Positions 4,374 through 64,000 of a DNA stretch of 64,000 nucleotides are shown here, in pieces (the first letter of the stretch is position 1; each line of letters starts with the position of its first letter). The stretch is from Neodothiora populina (Eukaryota). The position numbers and the translations under genes were made by a program. The stretch spans positions 930,001 through 994,000 of the forward strand of contig NW_027191402.1 in the NCBI RefSeq assembly GCF_041146345.1. Reading direction: 5' to 3'. Below the pieces are notes generated by a model, which saw nothing but the letters and a program-made list of their open reading frames with translations, made no database searches and was not told where the DNA came from.

Positions 4374-4870
4374 TTACCTTCGGACATTTAGACTTCGTAG
4401 ACGAACCACGATAGCGGACGGCATCAGGCAACAATACCAGGCGAGTGTACGAAGCATTGCCACGCTAAAGCGCAGAGCCAAGTAGATATTCTCACATCTC
4501 CGGTCAACACTCCACGTACGGCCACAGGCAGCTGAGAACTGGGCATCCCGTCCGCTCTGCCAGACATAAGCAGTTGACCGGCTGATTAGTACTACGGTGG
4601 GTGACCACGTGGGAATCCCGGCTGCTGTACGTTTTTCTTTTTGTGTTTGCCATAGTAGTCGCAGATCATTCTCCCTTTTTGCTGGGCTTACCAGATCGAG
4701 CCACATGGTGTAAAGCTCGCAATACCGGCCGAGTGACACCGTCGATCGAACCGGAACGCTATCTTGTACAAGTAAGTTTTATCGTATATACCGAAGATCT
4801 CTCTACGTGAAACCGGATTGAAGCGAGCCACCATGGGCAGGTTTCCAAGTGAGTCAAAGTTCTGACACAT
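4374..4870 (-). pseudogene. Possible decayed fragment of a HET-domain protein C-terminal region
   Basis: Two overlapping frames give ..ARFNPVSRREIFGI.. then ..ELY..ENDLRLLW..GIPTWSP..QFSAACGR, resembling the order of motifs RDKIFG / DL.LL / LPSWVPDW / F.A.G in HET proteins; frameshifted, no start or end found. Confidence 0.3.
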
Positions 4871-5747: not shown

Positions 5748-5869
5748 TGACAAGAGTGGGGTTCGAACCCACGCGGTTTCCCACTGCGGAATTGTTGTAT
5801 ATTGATAACGATTGGAATCGTTACGCAGTGTACCTAAACGCAGCGCCTTAACCACTCGGCCATCTTGCC
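5748..5869 (-). tRNA. tRNA-Leu(UAG) with 43-nt intron (5790-5832)
   Basis: Reverse complement GGCAAGATGGCCGAGTGGTTAAGGCGCTGCG-TTTAGG-[intron]-C-CGCAG-TGGGAAACCGC-GTGGGTTCGAACCCCAC-TCTTGTCA; A and B boxes, cloverleaf, variable arm, downstream T5 run. Confidence 0.95.
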
Positions 5870-33378: not shown

Positions 33379-33859
33379 GGTAAAGAACAAGTATGAGCGG
33401 GTCATATACACATTCACCGTAGCCGTACAAAAAGAAGCCATTTCGAAGTGCCAAAAAGCAACGACTGTCTTTTCATGTATCAATACTTGCCTGTATGTGT
33501 GATTCGGGTGTGAGCAATCCGAGCGCCTACCATCTTCACAGATTTTGTGAACCATCTAACCATGTAATAGTCAGTTCACTTCTTAACTCAGCCCAACTCC
33601 CGCTAGTCCAGAGATACAACATATTTACTATGCAGTGATGTTTATCAAATCCTCACAGAGCAAGGTGTCTCAGTGTCGATAAATCGGTACACATATGTAA
33701 CCAACACTATATGCTCCAAACCTCGACATTATCCCATGACCTCTCCAACCCAAAAGACATCTCATACCCTATATCATATATCCCGTCCCGACAACACCCA
33801 AAGCATCATACGAATAAGATGAAAGAGTTGAGAAGAACAAAAAAGAGCAAAAAGTAATG

Positions 33860-33930
33860 TGCATCGACGGGGAGTCGAACCCCGGCCAATCGCTTGGAAG
33901 GCGATTATCCTACCGTTGGACCACCGAAGC
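33860..33930 (-). tRNA. tRNA-Gly(UCC), intronless
   Basis: GCTTCGGTGGTCCAACGGTAGGATAATCGC-CTTCCAA-GCGATTGGCCGGGGTTCGACTCCCCGTCGATGCA; downstream T runs. Confidence 0.95.
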
Positions 33931-42460: not shown

Positions 42461-43446
42461 TCTGATGCTGAAGATCCGTCTAGGTAGGTACACGTTTGGA
42501 CAAGTAGCGCAGTGTCGTCGCAACATCGGATAGAAGTATGACGTAGTGTAGCCCGGCATAAGGTGTTGAAACATGTGATGTTGACACAACGAGGAAGAAA
42601 AGTCAGGAGATTTAGGCGCTTTCACGCTGGGTTTATTAGAGGAAGAAGGGGACGGGAGATTTTGTCGCTGTGTGGCAGACAGAACAAGTCCAACGTCGTT
42701 CACAGCAACCGCTTCTCCGCAAGTTTTTATGGGTCAGATGGAAAGCCAGGTGGAAAAGTTGTATTATTCCCGTCATCAATTATTGACACGCATTATAAAA
42801 GAGGTAAGTGTTGGAAGATTGCGCAGCTTTCCGATGGTACCTTTCTGTCCAAGGCTAATAATGGTGTAAGCGGATATTGCTGCGTCAGCACGCTGCACGT
42901 CTGTCCACTACCGCAGAGGGCAGTGGAGTTCCAAACGACGAGATCCTTCTAAGTTATTGGAGATGCTGAAGAGGCATGTGCCAGCATAGGATGTAGCATA
43001 GGCCCTCTTTGGCTAAACCCAAAGTGAGATCAGATAGAGTAAGAAAAGTCAAAGTACCAACTTCATTGACACCTTATCTACAATTTGTGACTTGCGCTGT
43101 AGCCATCCCTGTACGAACAAAACCCTGTTACTCGGCGACGCCTTCGCTGTCAGAGAATATGATCCTACCCAAGATCGAAACGAGATCCTTCGATTCAATC
43201 CGATCTTGCTTACGTTCGTTCTCGCACCACTGGCCGGGGTTCCTACCAACCTCGTCCTCGGAGTCTTGGTCCTTGGAATGGCCGTCACTCAACGACTAGG
43301 AAAAGAGTTTAGAGCATCTGATTCAACATGTCAAGTACTCACGTAGGTAGAAAGCAGTGTAGGAAAAACAAAGGATGAGCATAGGTTCATACAAGTGATT
43401 GTAGAACAAAATAGAGAAGGTGGGATGCACAAAACCAAAGAAAACT

Positions 43447-43538
43447 TTCCCATGCGGGGAATCGAACCCCGGCCTTGTCGGATCCTCTCTACTGTTGTAC
43501 ATGAAAGCGACAAATCCTAGCCGCTAGACCACATGGGA
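43447..43538 (-). tRNA. tRNA-Glu(UUC) with 20-nt intron
   Basis: TCCCATGTGGTCTAGCGGCTAGGATTTGTCG-CTTTCA-[TGTACAACAGTAGAGAGGAT]-C-CGACAAGGCCGGGGTTCGATTCCCCGCATGGGAA. Confidence 0.96.
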
Positions 43539-43983
43539 ATTGATAAGTAAACTCGTTTGTCATGATCCCATATGATCTCTAGCAACAGCAAAATCATGGT
43601 TGCTTTGTAGATTTCTTGTGTCGAAGTGGAAGTATATGTGATACACCGTCCGAAAGAGAGACATAGCAAGAGAGAGGGTGTGTGCCGAACGCCTTCAATT
43701 GTAATAATGTATACACAGTATAGAACTAGTCAAGCCTGCATTCGTCGCTTACTGTCAAGCAACACTACACGCAAAACCTGCATGCACTTCCAACCCACCA
43801 ATGCGCAATATTACTGTGACTACTAAGAAAGGACCTCGGACTCGAGACAAAGCAAGACTCCAATAGCTCTCTAGCGACCGACAAACAAATCGACCGGAAG
43901 TAATAACCCAAGGTCAATTGCCTGATACAATGTAAAAAGATCACAAGATATGAGCAAAAAGAAGTTGATTGGAATCAGTCGAT

Positions 43984-44054
43984 TGCATCGACCGGGAGTC
44001 GAACCCGGGCCAATCGCTTGGAAGGCGATTATCCTACCGTTGGACCATCGAAGC
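43984..44054 (-). tRNA. tRNA-Gly(UCC), intronless, second copy
   Basis: GCTTCGATGGTCCAACGGTAGGATAATCGC-CTTCCAA-GCGATTGGCCCGGGTTCGACTCCCGGTCGATGCA. Confidence 0.95.
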
Positions 44055-58852: not shown

Positions 58853-59873
58853 TCTCTTTTTGCTATTCCTCTATCTGAAGGTCTACCTGTTGCAGCAAGG
58901 ATATACGTCGTGTTTCTGCCCAAAGATGGTACAATAACAAATGTGCTAGGCGATGCGGTTTATAACTTGACGAAATCTATTGCAGGTATCTTGGAGATTA
59001 GGCATCTCCGATTTGACCGAGCATCTCGGAGATAATTGCAACAAAAGTAACAGAGTTCACGAGAGACGCTAATTACTGTCGACCGATATCACTCTACAAA
59101 GTACAGCTCAGTCATCACGCTCATTATTACCACTCAAGTCTAGTAGCAGCAACAATTTCATGACGAGTATATACACGCATTCCGCCATGCAAGGGTACCG
59201 TGTCCGAGTTCCGAAGTCCGAAAAGTCATGTTGGGTTGTTTGTCGGGCGGGGTAGAACACAGTGCTCGCCTCGAGCGCGAGAACGAAACACTCAGACATA
59301 TTCTATGCATTCTGTATTTGTGTGTGACTTGCTTATATATCATGTCTAGTGGATCCGTCTCCACTGTCTAATACTCCGCAGATGTGTTGTTTGTGTGAAG
59401 AGGCTTGCGTACGATATGCAGCACCAATAGCAGACTTATATTAAGCACATGAACTTGGAATATTAATACACTGGTTGATCGTCTCCATATGGGGTAAAGC
59501 AAAGCTTCGGGAAGCAGTATCATTGGTCTCGGAGTAGAGTTCACAAATTCGTGATATATTGAATGTTTGTACAAAACCGCCAGAGGACAATCGCTGAGGC
59601 GGTCGCTCGTTTAAAGCTCCATTACGCCGAGAAGTAGAGACCGAGGTGGATATCGTGTCATATGCCGAATACATGCGTCGACTTGTTTCTTGTGGCCCAA
59701 CAAGTGAAAGGTAAGAAGAACCAGCTGCGAAGAAAAAACTCCACCTGGACCCAGTGATGATATTTATAGAAAGTGAGAGAGTCGTGCTTCGTCGTAATTC
59801 GGCGTATGATTTCGTGAAGTCGACTCATCGTCGTGTAAGAAAAAAGGTCGTTATCCATGGGGCTGGTGTTGTT

Positions 59874-61913
59874 TCAATCACTGTCGCTGCTTTCGCCTTC
59901 GTTACCTCCGAGGTATGCGAAATCATGGAGATCAGGAGGGGTCTGCAATTCCTCTTCGTCGTATTCATCCTTGAGTTTCCAGAACGCCGTGGGGCCTGCT
60001 GGACCGTGTACATCGTAGTCTCTGCAGGACATGTCAGTATACAATCAATAAACAGTGTTGTTGAGATTCGGCTTACTTGTCAAACCAATTACCAAGCACA
60101 CCCCGGCCAGATCGAGGGCCGCCTATCTGGACACCCTCACTTCGCCATCTTTCTTCACTGTAAAAAAAACCGTTAGTGTGATGTGCTGAATTATCAAATG
60201 GTGAGTGAGGGTTGGTTCAAGTGCAAAAGAAAAGTATTCCCATGCGGGGAATCGAACCCCGGCCTTGTCGGATCCTCTGAGCAACTGCACATGAAAGCGA
60301 CAAATCCTAGCCGCTAGACCACATGGGAAAGACGATAAAAATAATGTGGATCAAAAGATTAATGAAAGCGAGAAACAGTGTTGCACGTACCCATGGAAGA
60401 TCGACCAAGTGGTCCATCTTATTTCTCCCTGTGGGGTCTGGCGTACGACGCCGCGGATCGCGGAATTCGCATTCGGATCCCAGCTGTTGTGGAGACTCCA
60501 GCTCGTACCTTCAAACCAGACAATGGGATAATCTTTGCCATCTTCTTCGCCAGACTCTTCGATTTTGGTGACACGGAGCTTCAGTTTAATCATTCGGATC
60601 GCTTCTCGCGTATCAATCGGCTCGCGAGGCTCTCCCTGCGCCGGCGGAGGTCGTGCAAAGTTGAAAGCATAAAAATCATGGTAATCTAGATTTGTCAGTC
60701 TTGTGCAGTAGTGCCGCCTTTTGCGATTCTGGCATACCTAAGAAGCATACAACCTATTCCACAGTCAGACATCGTTTGCGAGAATGGACTCTTGTTGTTT
60801 TGCTTACCCTCATCCACGTGCCGGATATGCCGTATGGGTCGAGTTCATCCAGTCGCCGTTGCTCGTCCAATCCTGCAGTGATGGATGGTGCTCTGAACTT
60901 TTCGACGTTTACCGCTGTCCTGTCGAAACAACTGTCTGGTTGCGAAACGTAGCTGTCCTTCTGGGCGCCGATCCACGGCTTTTCCCACATTGGGTCAATC
61001 TCGAACTGGGCACGTTCAAGGAACATGCGCAAGTTGTATCCTAGCACGACCATGATGGCCTCCATTTTCTCCCAGTCCACATCTTGGGTTCCATCGCTCT
61101 TGAATGGACCCCAGAAGCTACCTGCGGAGTATTGCCGGAGATCGTAAACCTTGGAGCGAGCATAGGAGTTTGTTGGTATGCTTATCATTTGCGATCGAGT
61201 TCTTCGGCCTTCGCATTCGAGATTAGATGGACGTGCAGGGGAAAGCGCGCGGTGTGAGGTCCGCCCTTCAATGTCGTCTCGCAGATATGAAGAAGAGCTG
61301 GGACAGTCGATTGGTACGCCGTATAAGCAATGGAGCTGTGCAGATACTTGTCGCAGAGCTTCGGTCGCTGCAGGTTTTTGTGTAGAGGAGCCAGCATGTT
61401 TGAATAGACTTGATGCAGCAAGGAAGGCGTCAACGTTCTTTTTGGACTTAAAGTACGGCTCAAGCAGAGGTATGTTAGATTGACACTTTGTCGTCTTCAT
61501 CATTGTAATTATGACATTTGCGACAATGTCAAGGTTGTTGCGCTGCGCCCGTACATGTCAGTATCTTGTTCAGCTTGACATTCGATCATCACAAGCTCAC
61601 CTTTAGCTCCATGTTGTCACTTTTTAATAGTCTCAGCATTTTTATCACATTTCGTACTTCAGTCTCCCAGTCACGGTCTTGAGATTCAGGCGGGCAGCCC
61701 TTAGACATCTGTCAGTACATACAATGACGGATAGACATGAGAGACAAATCATACCAGATTCTCAATGTATACATCCTTAAATAACAGCTTGTTATCGGCA
61801 ATGTATGATTTGAATGGAGAGCAAGTGTTGCTCAAAGAGGGTAGGTCTTTGGGGCTAACATATTTGAGGATATTGTGGAGCACCTCCGCGCTCATGTCAG
61901 ATAGGGATGTCAT
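59874..61913 (-). CDS. F-box domain protein (fungal family with YDLR / DWE / WRSEGVQIGG / GPAGPTAFWK motifs)
   Basis: MTSLSDMSAEVLHNILKYVSPKDLPSLSNTC F-box; seven exons including 16-nt micro-exon 60753-60738 and exons 60157-60077 and 60021-59874. Confidence 0.9.
60237..60328 (-). tRNA. tRNA-Glu(UUC) with 20-nt intron, nested in an intron of the F-box gene
   Basis: Exons identical to the 43447-43538 copy; intron TGTGCAGTTGCTCAGAGGAT; followed by TTTTCTTTT terminator-like run. Confidence 0.96.
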
Positions 61914-64000
61914 TGTTTGATTGATAGATTTTGAATGGGAAAGGTCAGCTCTGGAGCTCTGGAGGAGCGGTATCTTATAATTTTCCTTGGGACATAGCCG
62001 ACCAGGTCATTGGCGGACTGCCGCGCTTCTAGGCGATGCTGGAGGGTCTAAACTCCGCATCATGGGATCACTATCACAGACCCTTGAAGGATCGACTATG
62101 TGTTAGCGGGGTTAGTTGAAGTTGCCGTGCGCCCGACAACACCAGTTGGCTAACACTTTACGTCGGCAAAGTAGAAGATACACTTGCCCTAGCTAAATTG
62201 GCTTACGATGCATGTCTTGGTCCACCGATACCAACGCCTTTATAATAAACATGTCTCTGTCCGAGACGACGTGCATCTCAACATTCTGCAACATGGTTTA
62301 GCAGATCCCTCGCAAACCTCTTGATTGTCTCGCATTTGCATATGCAATGTCTAAAGCAGCGCACAGACTTCTAGCACTATTTTTGCCCTCAATATAAGTA
62401 AGCCATCACACAGTTGTACAACACTCCGGTCAGGTCACTACTTGGGTTGAGCTCGAAACGCAATGAAAGGCTCGAAAATGAGCCCCTTGGACGACACACA
62501 TGACCTTGTAGCTTCCTAATGCAGTAGGAGTTAATGGCCTTTATTTCCGGGCGGAGCCACGCGCTTCATTATTACTGATGTACAGTCCCCATCGAGGCAA
62601 AATCAAGAGCGAAAAATGGTCACTTGATATTGACTAGAGTCATCCCAAGCGACCCATGTGCCGGTTTCATCCAATCGATTCCAGATCTCGGAGAACAAAG
62701 ATCTGGCATAAAGCGAGGGCAACGTGATCACCACCAAGCTGTGCATCATTTTCCAGAAACAATGCTCCGGTACGTCGCGAAATCTCGTGATATAACAGTC
62801 ACAAGCAGTCAAACTAGACTATGTCGATTTAGTTGTCCTACGAGTATAAAAGAAAAGTGCTAGTGCTACGTTGGTTTGTTTTTTGGACCTCGCGACAATT
62901 AGGCTCTCACATGCTGCCACATCCCAAAGGCCTCCTGGACTTGTTTGTGTGTTTCCGTCCTCGAAGCGATTAGACACCACAAAAAGGCGGTCCTCCCAAA
63001 TTGCCTACGATCGATCACCTTTTCCTCTATTCTGTTCCGCTGCTTTTTCTTGGCCTTCCGCCGCTATAGCAGCTCAAGTCCGCGCAACCCGCGCGCGCCC
63101 AATAGATCCGCATGATCCGCGTTCGATTCGTCCAGGTTTGCTACAACGGCTCCACGAAAATTTGCGGGTGATCGAGGTGCACAGCTGTCTAGCTGGCTCT
63201 GCTGGTTCCAAATTTGTTCGAAAAGAACATAATAAAAACTGACGACCTCATCACTCCACCGTCGAGAAGCGTTGTTGCGGAGTGGAGCGCGCCGCTTCTA
63301 GACTGCTCCACGGGCCAGGCTGCAGCACTGGAGGCGGCTGGAAAGGGCCTCCGGTGTTTTCCCTAAGGTCAATAGGTCCTGGATTGAATTGGTTTTCCTA
63401 TCGGCGTGGCCGCTTGACCTCTTGCCTCTGGTGACTGTTTGGTGTACATCTGGACGTAATCCAAGCGTGGCATCGATTCTGCCCCAGGTCACGGCAAGGC
63501 ACCCGGAATGGAGGGGGTCGACACTGGGGTGATCTGAAATTGTCTGATGTTCTTCTGGCGTGACGCGACGATGAAATTGAAATCAAGACTAACACCACCG
63601 GAAGAAGGGGCAATCGCAAGAGACCTTTTTCTGTCGCTGTACAGTCGCAAATCTCTCTCACAGCAGGACACATATCAGTGATGATACAGTCAGTAGATCA
63701 GCTTCTGTACAGATATCTCGTCGTCATGTTGAGTGTCCTACCATCAGTACGCAAGATTTCGCATGACCGACCAGCCACGACACCATCTCCACAACAAATG
63801 TTCCGGACTCCACTCCACTCATCCCCATGGTTCATGTGAGAGATGTTCCGAGTAGTGCCGAGCTTGCCATGATGCGGTTATCACGACTCGAGGATCGGCA
63901 TATGTAAGATGGCTGTGGGGGATCGGAACTGATGATGCAGCAGTTCGGCATGCATACAACCCTTTGAGTTTTTGCGTTTACTGTTCACTAAGAATTCATT

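Follow-up and report, generated by a model that had tools for sequence, protein, structure and literature searches.

The closest described systems are the following. In Caenorhabditis, complete Pol III tRNA genes reside inside introns that belong to protein-coding genes (Sagi et al. 2016, PMC4999229). There, 56% of the intronic tRNA genes are sense-oriented, and 32-52% of C. elegans anticodon-host pairs are kept in other Caenorhabditis species. The same work counts 44% of 609 nematode tRNA genes as intronic, a proportion that does not exceed the chance expectation from the intron share of the genome. In S. cerevisiae, a TFIIIB roadblock was seen at 132 of 272 tRNA genes, with readthrough at none (Roy et al. 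2016, PMC5052057). The MIR in a Polr3e intron (Yeganeh et al. 2017, PMC5358760) and the nimtRNAs (Hoser et al. 2020, PMC7722341) have measured effects on host transcription or splicing. Yeast also carries intron-encoded snoRNAs, such as snR38, U18, and U24 (PMC3879985), and that paper makes no mention of a tRNA gene in a fungal spliceosomal intron. Our literature search, whose coverage leaves out most subscription journals, likewise found no report of a nuclear tRNA gene in such an intron.

The locus described here lies in the window, the whole 64,000-nt stretch of Neodothiora populina DNA that was analysed, and is likely an autonomous nuclear tRNA-Glu(UUC) gene nested in the sense orientation in intron 5 of a conserved F-box gene. 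The host gene, AAFC00_001918 (59874..61913, minus strand), encodes an F-box protein of 510 aa. Its CDS has seven exons, at 61913-61755, 61699-61601, 61542-60808, 60753-60738, 60685-60391, 60157-60077, and 60021-59874, the fourth of which is a micro-exon of 16 nt. The spliced seven-exon model (1533 nt, minus strand) translates to a protein identical to the deposited P0001 (510 aa), which was a 100% match in a protein homologue search that gave 70 homologues. The N-terminus of P0001 contains a Pfam F-box (PF00646, residues 4-45, E = 3.7e-08, 33.4 bits versus a cut-off of 20.5), and PF12937, likewise N-terminal, is also above its cut-off (26.2 versus 24.3 bits). The conserved C-terminal part matched no Pfam family at E <= 0.01. 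In a 28-sequence alignment, 23 invariant residues (E437...K477) are encoded by exons 6 and 7, and all of them are kept in the window. These two exons, which lie 3' of the tRNA, are the best-conserved part of the family.

Intron 5 (60158..60390, minus strand) is a spliceosomal intron of 233 nt in phase 2, assigned from its splice signals and from the identity of the spliced model with P0001. The donor GTACGT is found at 60390-60385 (cat gg|gtacgt). ACTAAC, the branch site, lies at 60177-60172 and is followed by a T8 tract at 60169-60162; the acceptor cag ends at 60158, its AG occupying 60159-60158. Taking out exactly 233 nt joins GG and T into a Gly codon and gives the reading ...WSIFHG-EERWRSEGVQIGG.... 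The borders and branch site are those of a GT-AG intron, and its removal restores the conserved frame. The initial annotation had placed this intron between 60390 and 60158, with ACTAAC ahead of its 3' end and a length of 233 nt, all of which holds. It had also given about 50 nt for the other introns of the gene; the measured range is 52-58 nt (55, 58, 54, 52, and 55 nt for the five). Of the 70 homologues, 52 read through the junction FHG|EERWRSE without a break, and the 18 without a contiguous junction are fragments or visibly broken models. In Aureobasidium the corresponding junction reads FHS|EERW. Judged from these features, intron 5 is a real intron, and its phase-2 position between FHG and EERW is old and shared by many homologues.

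In two relatives, the deposited models (P0002 and P0003) are broken exactly at the intron 5 junction. A search for a transcript-derived Aureobasidium protein spanning the junction, with P0003 as the query, gave nothing but fragments of ORFs ending within introns (P0071-P0074 and P0078). When the C-terminal exon of locus L008 was used as the query for such a protein, P0003 was the only match at high identity. A search for sequencing runs containing this locus listed no RNA run; the single run listed, X1 (word share 0.26), contributed five short contigs with unspliced introns and no joints, and is DNA-like.

The nested tRNA-Glu(UUC) gene occupies 60237..60328 on the minus strand, 92 nt including the discriminator, and was identified by ARAGORN and Rfam RF00005. 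It lies on the sense strand of the host, with 62 nt of intron 5 before it and 79 nt after it. Its 5' exon spans 60328-60292, its 20-nt tRNA intron 60291-60272, and its 3' exon 60271-60237. ARAGORN calls a tRNA-Glu(ttc) with a 20-nt intron on the minus strand at 60236-60329, with the anticodon UUC at 34-36. The tRNA intron falls between positions 37 and 38, reported by ARAGORN as i(39,20) with the gene started 1 nt early. The match to RF00005 is full length (model positions 1-71), at 50.1 bits versus a gathering score of 29 (E = 5e-10); the two intron-less tRNA-Gly genes of the window score 60.5 and 64.6 bits. A complete same-strand tRNA-Glu(UUC) with a 20-nt intron, as the initial annotation had described it, is confirmed. 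The nested gene and a second copy elsewhere in the window were missed by a whole-window Rfam run at gathering thresholds and recovered by a permissive run, the miss of the nested gene presumably reflecting the speed filters and its tRNA intron. The nested tRNA-Glu forms 21 of 21 cloverleaf pairs, as does every one of the 6 distinct sequences. In the predicted minimum-energy fold, U34-U35-C36 pair with a GGA of the tRNA intron, and this GGA is common to the intron of the second copy.

Putative Pol III signals surround and occupy the gene. As putative elements of an internal A- and B-box promoter, the tRNA contains GGTTCGATTCC and carries TGGTCTAGCGG at the A-box position. The presumed Pol III terminator, TTTTCTTTT (60225..60233, minus strand), starts 3 nt after the discriminator. 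A T-run had been noted here at the outset, and it is present as TTTT-C-TTTT, two runs of four rather than one long run; a further T8 follows at +67. Pol III of budding and fission yeast prefers five or more T. A terminator of only T4-C-T4 is a point against the explanation we favor. Upstream, the 62 nt that separate the 5' splice site and the tRNA (60329..60390, minus strand) are a putative TFIIIB site and contain ATTATTTTTAT at 8-18 nt upstream of the tRNA. By analogy with the yeast footprint quoted in PMC5052057, we infer that TFIIIB would sit within 60329..60390.

The second tRNA-Glu(UUC) copy, called by ARAGORN at 43447..43538 on the minus strand, lies 17 kb away and serves as a comparator outside the nested unit. 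Its exons are identical to those of the nested tRNA-Glu, but the two 20-nt introns differ, and the flanks of the second copy are unrelated and contain no long ORFs. Shared flanks of the two copies as the mark of an inserted segment were considered and rejected, the flanks being unrelated. The window's other four tRNA genes look intergenic, as read from the ORF layout only.

The initial annotation had proposed a search for a tRNA in the orthologous intron of relatives. The comparison set comprised 80 orthologous metagenome loci (353,531 bases), out of 139 confirmed relatives. At the intron 5 site, 37 loci are intron-less, 35 have a short intron (48-99 nt), 6 have a long intron (278-554 nt), 1 is cut, and 1 is unresolved, so that an intron is present in 42 of the 80 loci when the cut locus, L015, is counted. 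L020 resembles a cDNA form of L047 minus the short intron at this site; this concerns an unrelated lineage. ARAGORN found seven tRNAs in total among the 80 loci, all Glu(ttc), all in the sense orientation, and all past the orthologous 5' splice site. Six lie inside the 278-554-nt introns at the same phase-2 site, and the contig of the seventh is cut. Rfam confirms all seven at 51-60 bits. Three of the seven loci (L014, L015, and L055) are nearly the same, and L011 is 90% like L014; the seven thus represent some four separate lineages in addition to the window. The orthologous intron carries a sense tRNA-Glu(UUC) in 7 of 80 loci, all in one clade. The initial annotation had also named a lack of conservation, next to a lack of effect of tRNA deletion, as the mark of a neutral passenger. 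The lack of conservation does not apply, because the orthologous introns of clade relatives hold the same sense tRNA-Glu(UUC), which indicates that the nesting is old. Chance origin of the nested gene is excluded by its tRNA score together with the presence of the same tRNA in the same intron of relatives.

The conserved elements of these introns are few. Between the 5' splice site and the tRNA there are 62 nt in the window and in L008; the spacing is 57 nt in L009, L011, L014, and L055, and 123 nt in L041. Each of the six relatives whose intron was measured has a T-run of 4-6 located 4-16 nt past its tRNA. In the tRNA stems, 124 of 124 cells form standard pairs, and five pairs are changed on both sides (compensatory), a number reached by 4 of 500 shuffles, with at most one pair in slid controls. 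Apart from the tRNA and its trailer, no likeness can be recognised among the introns of the window, L041, and the Aureobasidium-like group, and whole-intron identity is 0.36-0.59 with the tRNA included. Across the tRNA-bearing introns, these comparisons show conservation of only the tRNA, the T-run, and the splice signals. The host proteins across this conserved nesting diverge down to about 50% identity. Relative to the window, L011 lacks introns 3, 4, and 6 and has one extra intron (single HSPs 64-418 and 429-484). The other introns of the F-box gene have turned over, and the tRNA-bearing intron has stayed.

Quick trees from FastTree and IQ-TREE both place the window and all seven tRNA loci in a single clade of 16 rows, with a support of 100. 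The clade also includes Aureobasidium pullulans and Dothideomycetes sp. NU459. The analysis covered Myriangium, Elsinoe, NU459, and the named A. pullulans record at the protein level. Three sub-lineages of the clade form a trichotomy, and one sub-lineage, L001, L002, and L005, has neither intron nor tRNA and has kept the host gene. The nested tRNA-Glu, from this distribution, appears to be an old and retained Pol III-type gene. By parsimony, the tRNA gene would have been inserted once, into a pre-existing short intron, in the ancestor of the Dothideales-type clade. Selection has probably since kept it as a working tRNA gene, and the sub-lineage of L001, L002, and L005 would have dropped the whole intron and lost the tRNA along with it.

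Our studies suggest how such a locus could operate. Pol III would transcribe the nested tRNA from its internal promoter and end transcription at the T-run. The Pol II transcript of the host gene would carry the tRNA in intron 5, and splicing would remove both. Interference between the two machineries is likely to occur to some degree but not in full, since the most conserved part of the protein is encoded by exons that lie downstream of the tRNA. The initial annotation had proposed that RNase P, RNase Z, and the SEN endonuclease could cut the pre-mRNA in competition with splicing, and that TFIIIC/Pol III could block Pol II and so couple F-box expression to Pol III activity. Published work makes interference plausible. 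To us the nesting looks tolerated, not demonstrably regulatory; the conservation of a needed tRNA gene is not proof that coupling is used for regulation.

An adaptive role for the arrangement must be weighed against this reading. The tRNA could act as a Pol III-dependent roadblock or processing switch, with full-length F-box mRNA made mainly when Pol III factors leave the tRNA and the protein level tracking the growth state; this is the coupling put forward in the initial annotation. In S. cerevisiae, the 3' ends of Pol II transcripts accumulate ahead of tRNA genes, ~65 bp upstream (PMC5052057). In 6 of 7 measured sequences, 57-62 bp separate the 5' splice site from the tRNA downstream of it, so a stall of this type would fall at the border of exon 5 and the intron. 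This spacing may, however, only be the room required for a Pol III promoter complex, and in L041 it is 123 nt. Five nuclear tRNA genes placed in a reporter intron reduced mRNA in human cells (PMC7722341). Expression of intronic tRNAs in C. elegans is affected by host promoters, and Pol III occupancy is lower on sense-oriented intronic tRNAs (PMC4999229). The arrangement is also old, with a clade support of 100, but the need for a tRNA gene explains its retention equally well. Moreover, L001, L002, and L005 lost the intron and the tRNA and kept the host gene, and most of the wider family has no tRNA at the intron 5 site, which indicates that the host gene does not need the tRNA. We therefore consider regulation of this kind unlikely. 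In its most specific form, a built-in sensor, Pol III factors on the tRNA-Glu would stop Pol II at the end of exon 5 during fast growth, or the pre-mRNA would be cut at the tRNA before splicing. The F-box protein would then rise only under Pol III repression, and the gate would have been kept since the Dothideales-type ancestor. We judge this version quite unlikely; if it were true, turnover of the F-box protein's substrates would rise only when Pol III is repressed.

Alternatively, RNase P and RNase Z could release most of the mature tRNA from the host pre-mRNA or from the excised intron, in the manner of intronic snoRNAs or mirtrons, rather than from a Pol III transcript of its own. The sense orientation in 8 of 8 cases (the window and the seven loci) is consistent with this route, and the possibility has been raised for C. 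elegans intronic tRNAs (PMC4999229). Yet T-runs stand directly after the tRNA in all lineages while the remaining intron has diverged, and they argue against a tRNA made by Pol II only, which would not need them. The second copy in the window, with the same exons, looks free-standing. In human cells, mitochondrial-type intronic tRNAs were not processed from a Pol II intron (PMC7722341). These points make a main supply from the host transcript very improbable. That the tRNA is a dead relic (a pseudogene or SINE-like remnant), or the arrangement an artefact in which exons 6-7 are foreign to the F-box gene, is hardly credible: the P0002 and P0003 models do break at exactly this junction, but the tRNA forms a full cloverleaf with compensatory changes and scores 50-60 bits in Rfam beside 60.5 and 64.6 for the tRNA-Gly genes, the two sides join seamlessly, and no part of the family is better conserved than the downstream exons.

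The tRNA gene within intron 5 has practical consequences for annotation. The deposited proteins of A. pullulans and NU459 are wrong at the intron 5 junction, and the intron breaks automatic models. A tRNA in a long intron of an otherwise short-intron gene should not be read as a gene boundary. A. pullulans, in which the arrangement is probably also present, is widely grown in laboratories and in industry. Data from budding yeast suggest that Pol II does not get past an active tRNA gene, and a sense tRNA has here long stood before the most conserved exons, which makes the locus a compact natural test case. A single stretch of 233 nt would have to serve Pol II and the spliceosome as well as Pol III and the tRNA-processing enzymes.

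Intronic tRNA genes with conserved hosts are already known from nematodes; what is new here is the state of the intron 5 site across the 80 orthologous loci, with the tRNA in seven of them. As in Caenorhabditis, a complete tRNA gene lies in an intron, and the pairing of anticodon and host is conserved across species. In contrast to Caenorhabditis, the introns of this genome are about 55 nt long, and an intron that houses the tRNA is four to ten times the usual length; the window's four remaining tRNA genes look intergenic by ORF layout, and conservation extends to ~50% protein identity. The S. cerevisiae roadblocks resemble this locus in that a tRNA gene stands in the path of Pol II, and the predicted ~65-bp stall point would correspond here to the exon/intron border. 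The yeast cases, however, are intergenic and terminate non-coding or readthrough transcripts, whereas the tRNA here lies inside a coding gene whose downstream exons are needed. The Polr3e MIR is likewise a Pol III-type element in a Pol II intron that is conserved across species, but it is an antisense SINE, whereas the fungal element is a sense-oriented and apparently functional cytoplasmic tRNA gene. The nimtRNAs are also conserved intronic elements of Pol III type; they differ in being mitochondrial-derived look-alikes that are not matured into tRNA, whereas the gene in intron 5 appears to be a functional cytoplasmic tRNA gene. Like the fungal intronic snoRNAs, the tRNA-Glu would give a small stable RNA from within a spliceosomal intron and is conserved with its host. 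Those snoRNAs are promoterless and host-dependent, whereas the nested tRNA-Glu has a putative internal promoter and a presumed terminator of its own.

The host gene, AAFC00_001918, lies on the minus strand, and its exon borders were located in the minus-strand reading of 59500-64000. Seven exons (61913-61755, 61699-61601, 61542-60808, 60753-60738, 60685-60391, 60157-60077, and 60021-59874) give a spliced coding sequence of 1533 nt, which encodes precisely the deposited protein P0001, a 510-aa "hypothetical protein AAFC00_001918 [Neodothiora populina]" that a protein search with exon 3 recovers at 100% identity. The F-box (PF00646) is found by Pfam at the N-terminus with E = 3.7e-08; the same search gives no match for the conserved C-terminal part. 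Exon 4 is a 16-nt micro-exon (VVCFL plus 1 nt) between introns of 54 and 52 nt; it supplies part of a conserved RVVCFLDY motif, and the same stretch is unbroken in Aureobasidium-like loci. The introns measure, in order, 55, 58, 54, 52, 233, and 55 nt. Intron 5 (60390..60158) splits a Gly codon (GG|T), begins with GTACGT, and carries ACTAAC at 60177-60172, followed by a T8 tract and CAG. Its excision fuses ...WSIFHG to EERWRSEGVQIGG... The initial annotation had proposed this 233-nt intron against about 50 nt elsewhere in the gene; its borders are confirmed, the others being 52-58 nt and the spliced model being P0001.

Among homologues from the exon-3 search, the junction motif is unbroken in 52 of 70; the other 18 are metagenome ORF fragments or visibly broken models. 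Exons 6 and 7 contain 23 invariant columns (E437 to K477) in a 28-sequence alignment, and the window retains all 23. This pattern indicates that exons 6-7 are under purifying selection as part of the host protein. It implies in turn that intron 5 is spliced. The only sequencing run listed for the locus, X1, is DNA-like and shows no joints; record 3 of that run, which maps to window 60236-60278, represents a different tRNA-Glu locus and may come from a second organism present in the run.

Intron 5 contains a tRNA-Glu(UUC) gene with a 20-nt intron at 60237-60328, on the minus strand and therefore in host sense. It is found by ARAGORN (ttc) and, as a full-length match of 50.1 bits (gathering score 29), by the Rfam tRNA model; when Rfam was run on the whole window at gathering thresholds, the gene was not listed. 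The 5' splice site lies 62 nt before the gene and the 3' splice site 79 nt after it. Its own intron (60272-60291) sits between positions 37 and 38, and in the minimum-energy fold a GGA of this intron pairs with the anticodon. The trailer is TAC-TTTT-C-TTTT, and no further T-run occurs until the T8 in the polypyrimidine tract, right ahead of the acceptor. The two programs and the trailer bear out the claim of a sense-strand, intron-bearing tRNA-Glu(UUC) followed by a T-run.

A second tRNA-Glu(UUC) copy (43447-43538, minus strand) has exons identical to those of the nested gene and unrelated flanks. Its 20-nt intron is different, and the intron ends are conserved in both Neodothiora copies. This copy and a tRNA-Gly(UCC) gene, both on the minus strand, are spaced 445 nt apart within 43446-44054. 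Another tRNA-Gly(UCC), 10 kb off at 33859-33930 (minus strand), differs from the first by two substitutions at paired sites of the T stem and one in the acceptor stem. From the ORF layout alone, the tRNA-Glu copy and both tRNA-Gly genes appear intergenic. Elsewhere in the window, a 5S rRNA gene (4514-4633, plus strand, 77.9 bits) and a tRNA-Leu(UAG) gene (5748-5869, minus strand), with a 43-nt intron by ARAGORN or a 46-nt insert by Rfam, are separated by 1.1 kb, with no long ORFs around either.

Metagenome contigs were scanned with a 28-protein alignment; of 139 confirmed relatives, 80 were recovered as orthologous loci (353,531 bases), and both sides of the junction were anchored at each locus to score the state of the FHG/EERW site. 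Among these loci, the site has no intron at 37, a class in which some contigs may be cDNA, a short intron (48-99 nt) at 35, and a long intron (278-554 nt) at 6. The contig of L015 is cut just past the 5' splice site region, and L054 is not classed by junction pattern but has an intron of ~58 nt by anchoring. ARAGORN detects seven tRNA genes across all 80 loci, carried by the six long-intron loci and L015; all seven are Glu(ttc), sense, and in the orthologous intron 5, and all are confirmed by Rfam at 51-60 bits. The synteny check called for in the initial annotation thus finds the tRNA at 7 of the 80 loci. The intron phase is the same in all tRNA-bearing loci, with a split codon of AG|C or AG|T (Ser) in L008, L009, L011, L014, L015, and L055 and of GG|A (Gly) in L041. 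The split-codon Gly corresponds to column G435, invariant in 28/28 aligned family members, and is also Gly in the window and L041; in the Aureobasidium-like loci L008, L009, L011, and L014, Ser replaces it at the equivalent of window 60391-60392. Locus L020 is probably cDNA from a metatranscriptome because its protein is nearly identical to those of L044-L047 yet it is intron-free throughout; L047 has several introns, including one of 60 nt at FHG|EERW. If L020 is cDNA, the pair documents splicing of the short intron in that lineage. The intron-less loci L001, L002, and L005 (the last on a 160-kb contig) retain other introns and are genomic.

The cloverleaf was compared among the window tRNA, the second copy, L041, L008, L009, L011, and L014. 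All 124 pair cells are standard pairs, with double-sided changes at five pairs (acceptor 4-69, 5-68, and 7-66; anticodon stem 28-42; T stem 50-64). Five such pairs were reached in 4/500 shuffles, and slid controls give 0 or 1. In every sequence compared, a T-run of 4-6 is found within 4-16 nt of where the tRNA ends. Apart from the tRNA, trailer, and splice signals, the intron sequences cannot be aligned between the three lineages. The tRNA begins 62 nt past the 5' splice site in the window and L008, 57 nt in L009, L011, L014, and L055, and 123 nt in L041. Other host introns have turned over; L011 lacks window introns 3, 4, and 6 and carries an additional intron after ...IRG. The intron within the tRNA gene measures 20 nt in Neodothiora and 10 nt in L041 (939-1021), and the Aureobasidium-like loci (L008:4451-4522) have none; this variation suggests that a tRNA intron was gained or lost, or that dispersed tRNA-Glu copies have evolved in concert.

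At the level of sequence, these comparisons establish an intact tRNA gene, kept by selection and sense to its host, in a real and old intron. Pol III would transcribe it from a predicted internal promoter and stop at the T-run; the host Pol II transcript would include the tRNA as part of the intron, to be removed by splicing. Interference between the two polymerases is plausible. In S. cerevisiae, according to extracts of PMC5052057, 3' ends of Pol II transcripts are most abundant ~65 bp upstream of tRNA genes, with a TFIIIB roadblock at 132/272 tRNA genes and readthrough at none; a stall of this type would here fall on the last bases of exon 5. Extracts of PMC7722341 describe reduced mRNA from a reporter whose intron held five nuclear tRNA genes in human cells, and those of PMC4999229 describe C. 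elegans intronic tRNAs influenced by host promoters, with lower Pol III occupancy on sense ones. An adaptive gate, in which the nested gene controls host expression, is nevertheless unlikely, because the host gene persists without the tRNA in L001, L002, L005, and most of the wider family. Tolerated nesting is our main reading.

Host-protein trees were built from named NCBI proteins and HSP-joined locus translations, excluding loci below 250 aa and six exact duplicates (FastTree, 103 rows; IQ-TREE quick run, 42 chosen rows). In both, the window and every tRNA locus long enough fall in one 16-row clade with support of 100. L055 (165 aa) was excluded; its intron length, spacing, and flanking sequence match L014. 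The IQ-TREE run gives three groups as an unresolved trichotomy: Dothideomycetes sp. NU459 with L041; Aureobasidium pullulans P0003 with L008, whose C-terminal exon is 100% identical to it, then L009, L011, L014, and L015; and Neodothiora with intron-less L001, L002, and L005 and with Myriangium, Elsinoe, and Sphaceloma proteins. In the FastTree tree, Capnodiales-type loci have no intron at the site, and loci grouping with lichen-forming and Leotiomycete proteins have a short one. In the simplest history, the intron position would be old, a single tRNA insertion would have occurred in the ancestor of the 16-row clade, and a later single, precise loss would have removed intron and tRNA together. 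The tree by itself would also be compatible with three lineages having acquired this isoacceptor independently, in identical orientation and in the same intron, a history that is much less likely.

The deposited models of P0003 and of the NU459 protein P0002 are wrong at exactly the FHG/EERW junction. P0003 omits a 20-aa micro-exon (...VRQTPEGEIRWTTFSIFHS) that is flanked by a small intron on one side and the tRNA intron on the other (L008:4370-4690, L011:1541-1600), and P0002 lacks ERWRSEG. Automatic annotation seems to be defeated by the tRNA-bearing intron.

The nested tRNA is a real feature, and intronic tRNA genes are a kind already known because they are common in nematodes: extracts of PMC4999229 give 44% of 609 tRNA genes as intronic and 32-52% of anticodon-host pairs as conserved within Caenorhabditis. 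The literature searched, of limited coverage, yielded no fungal case of a tRNA gene in a spliceosomal intron. In contrast to the nematode examples, the introns of the N. populina genome are tiny, the tRNA inflates its intron four- to ten-fold, and conservation reaches across protein divergence to ~50% identity. The arrangement also contrasts with S. cerevisiae, where tRNA genes stop Pol II, whereas in N. populina a tRNA gene is nested in its host gene.
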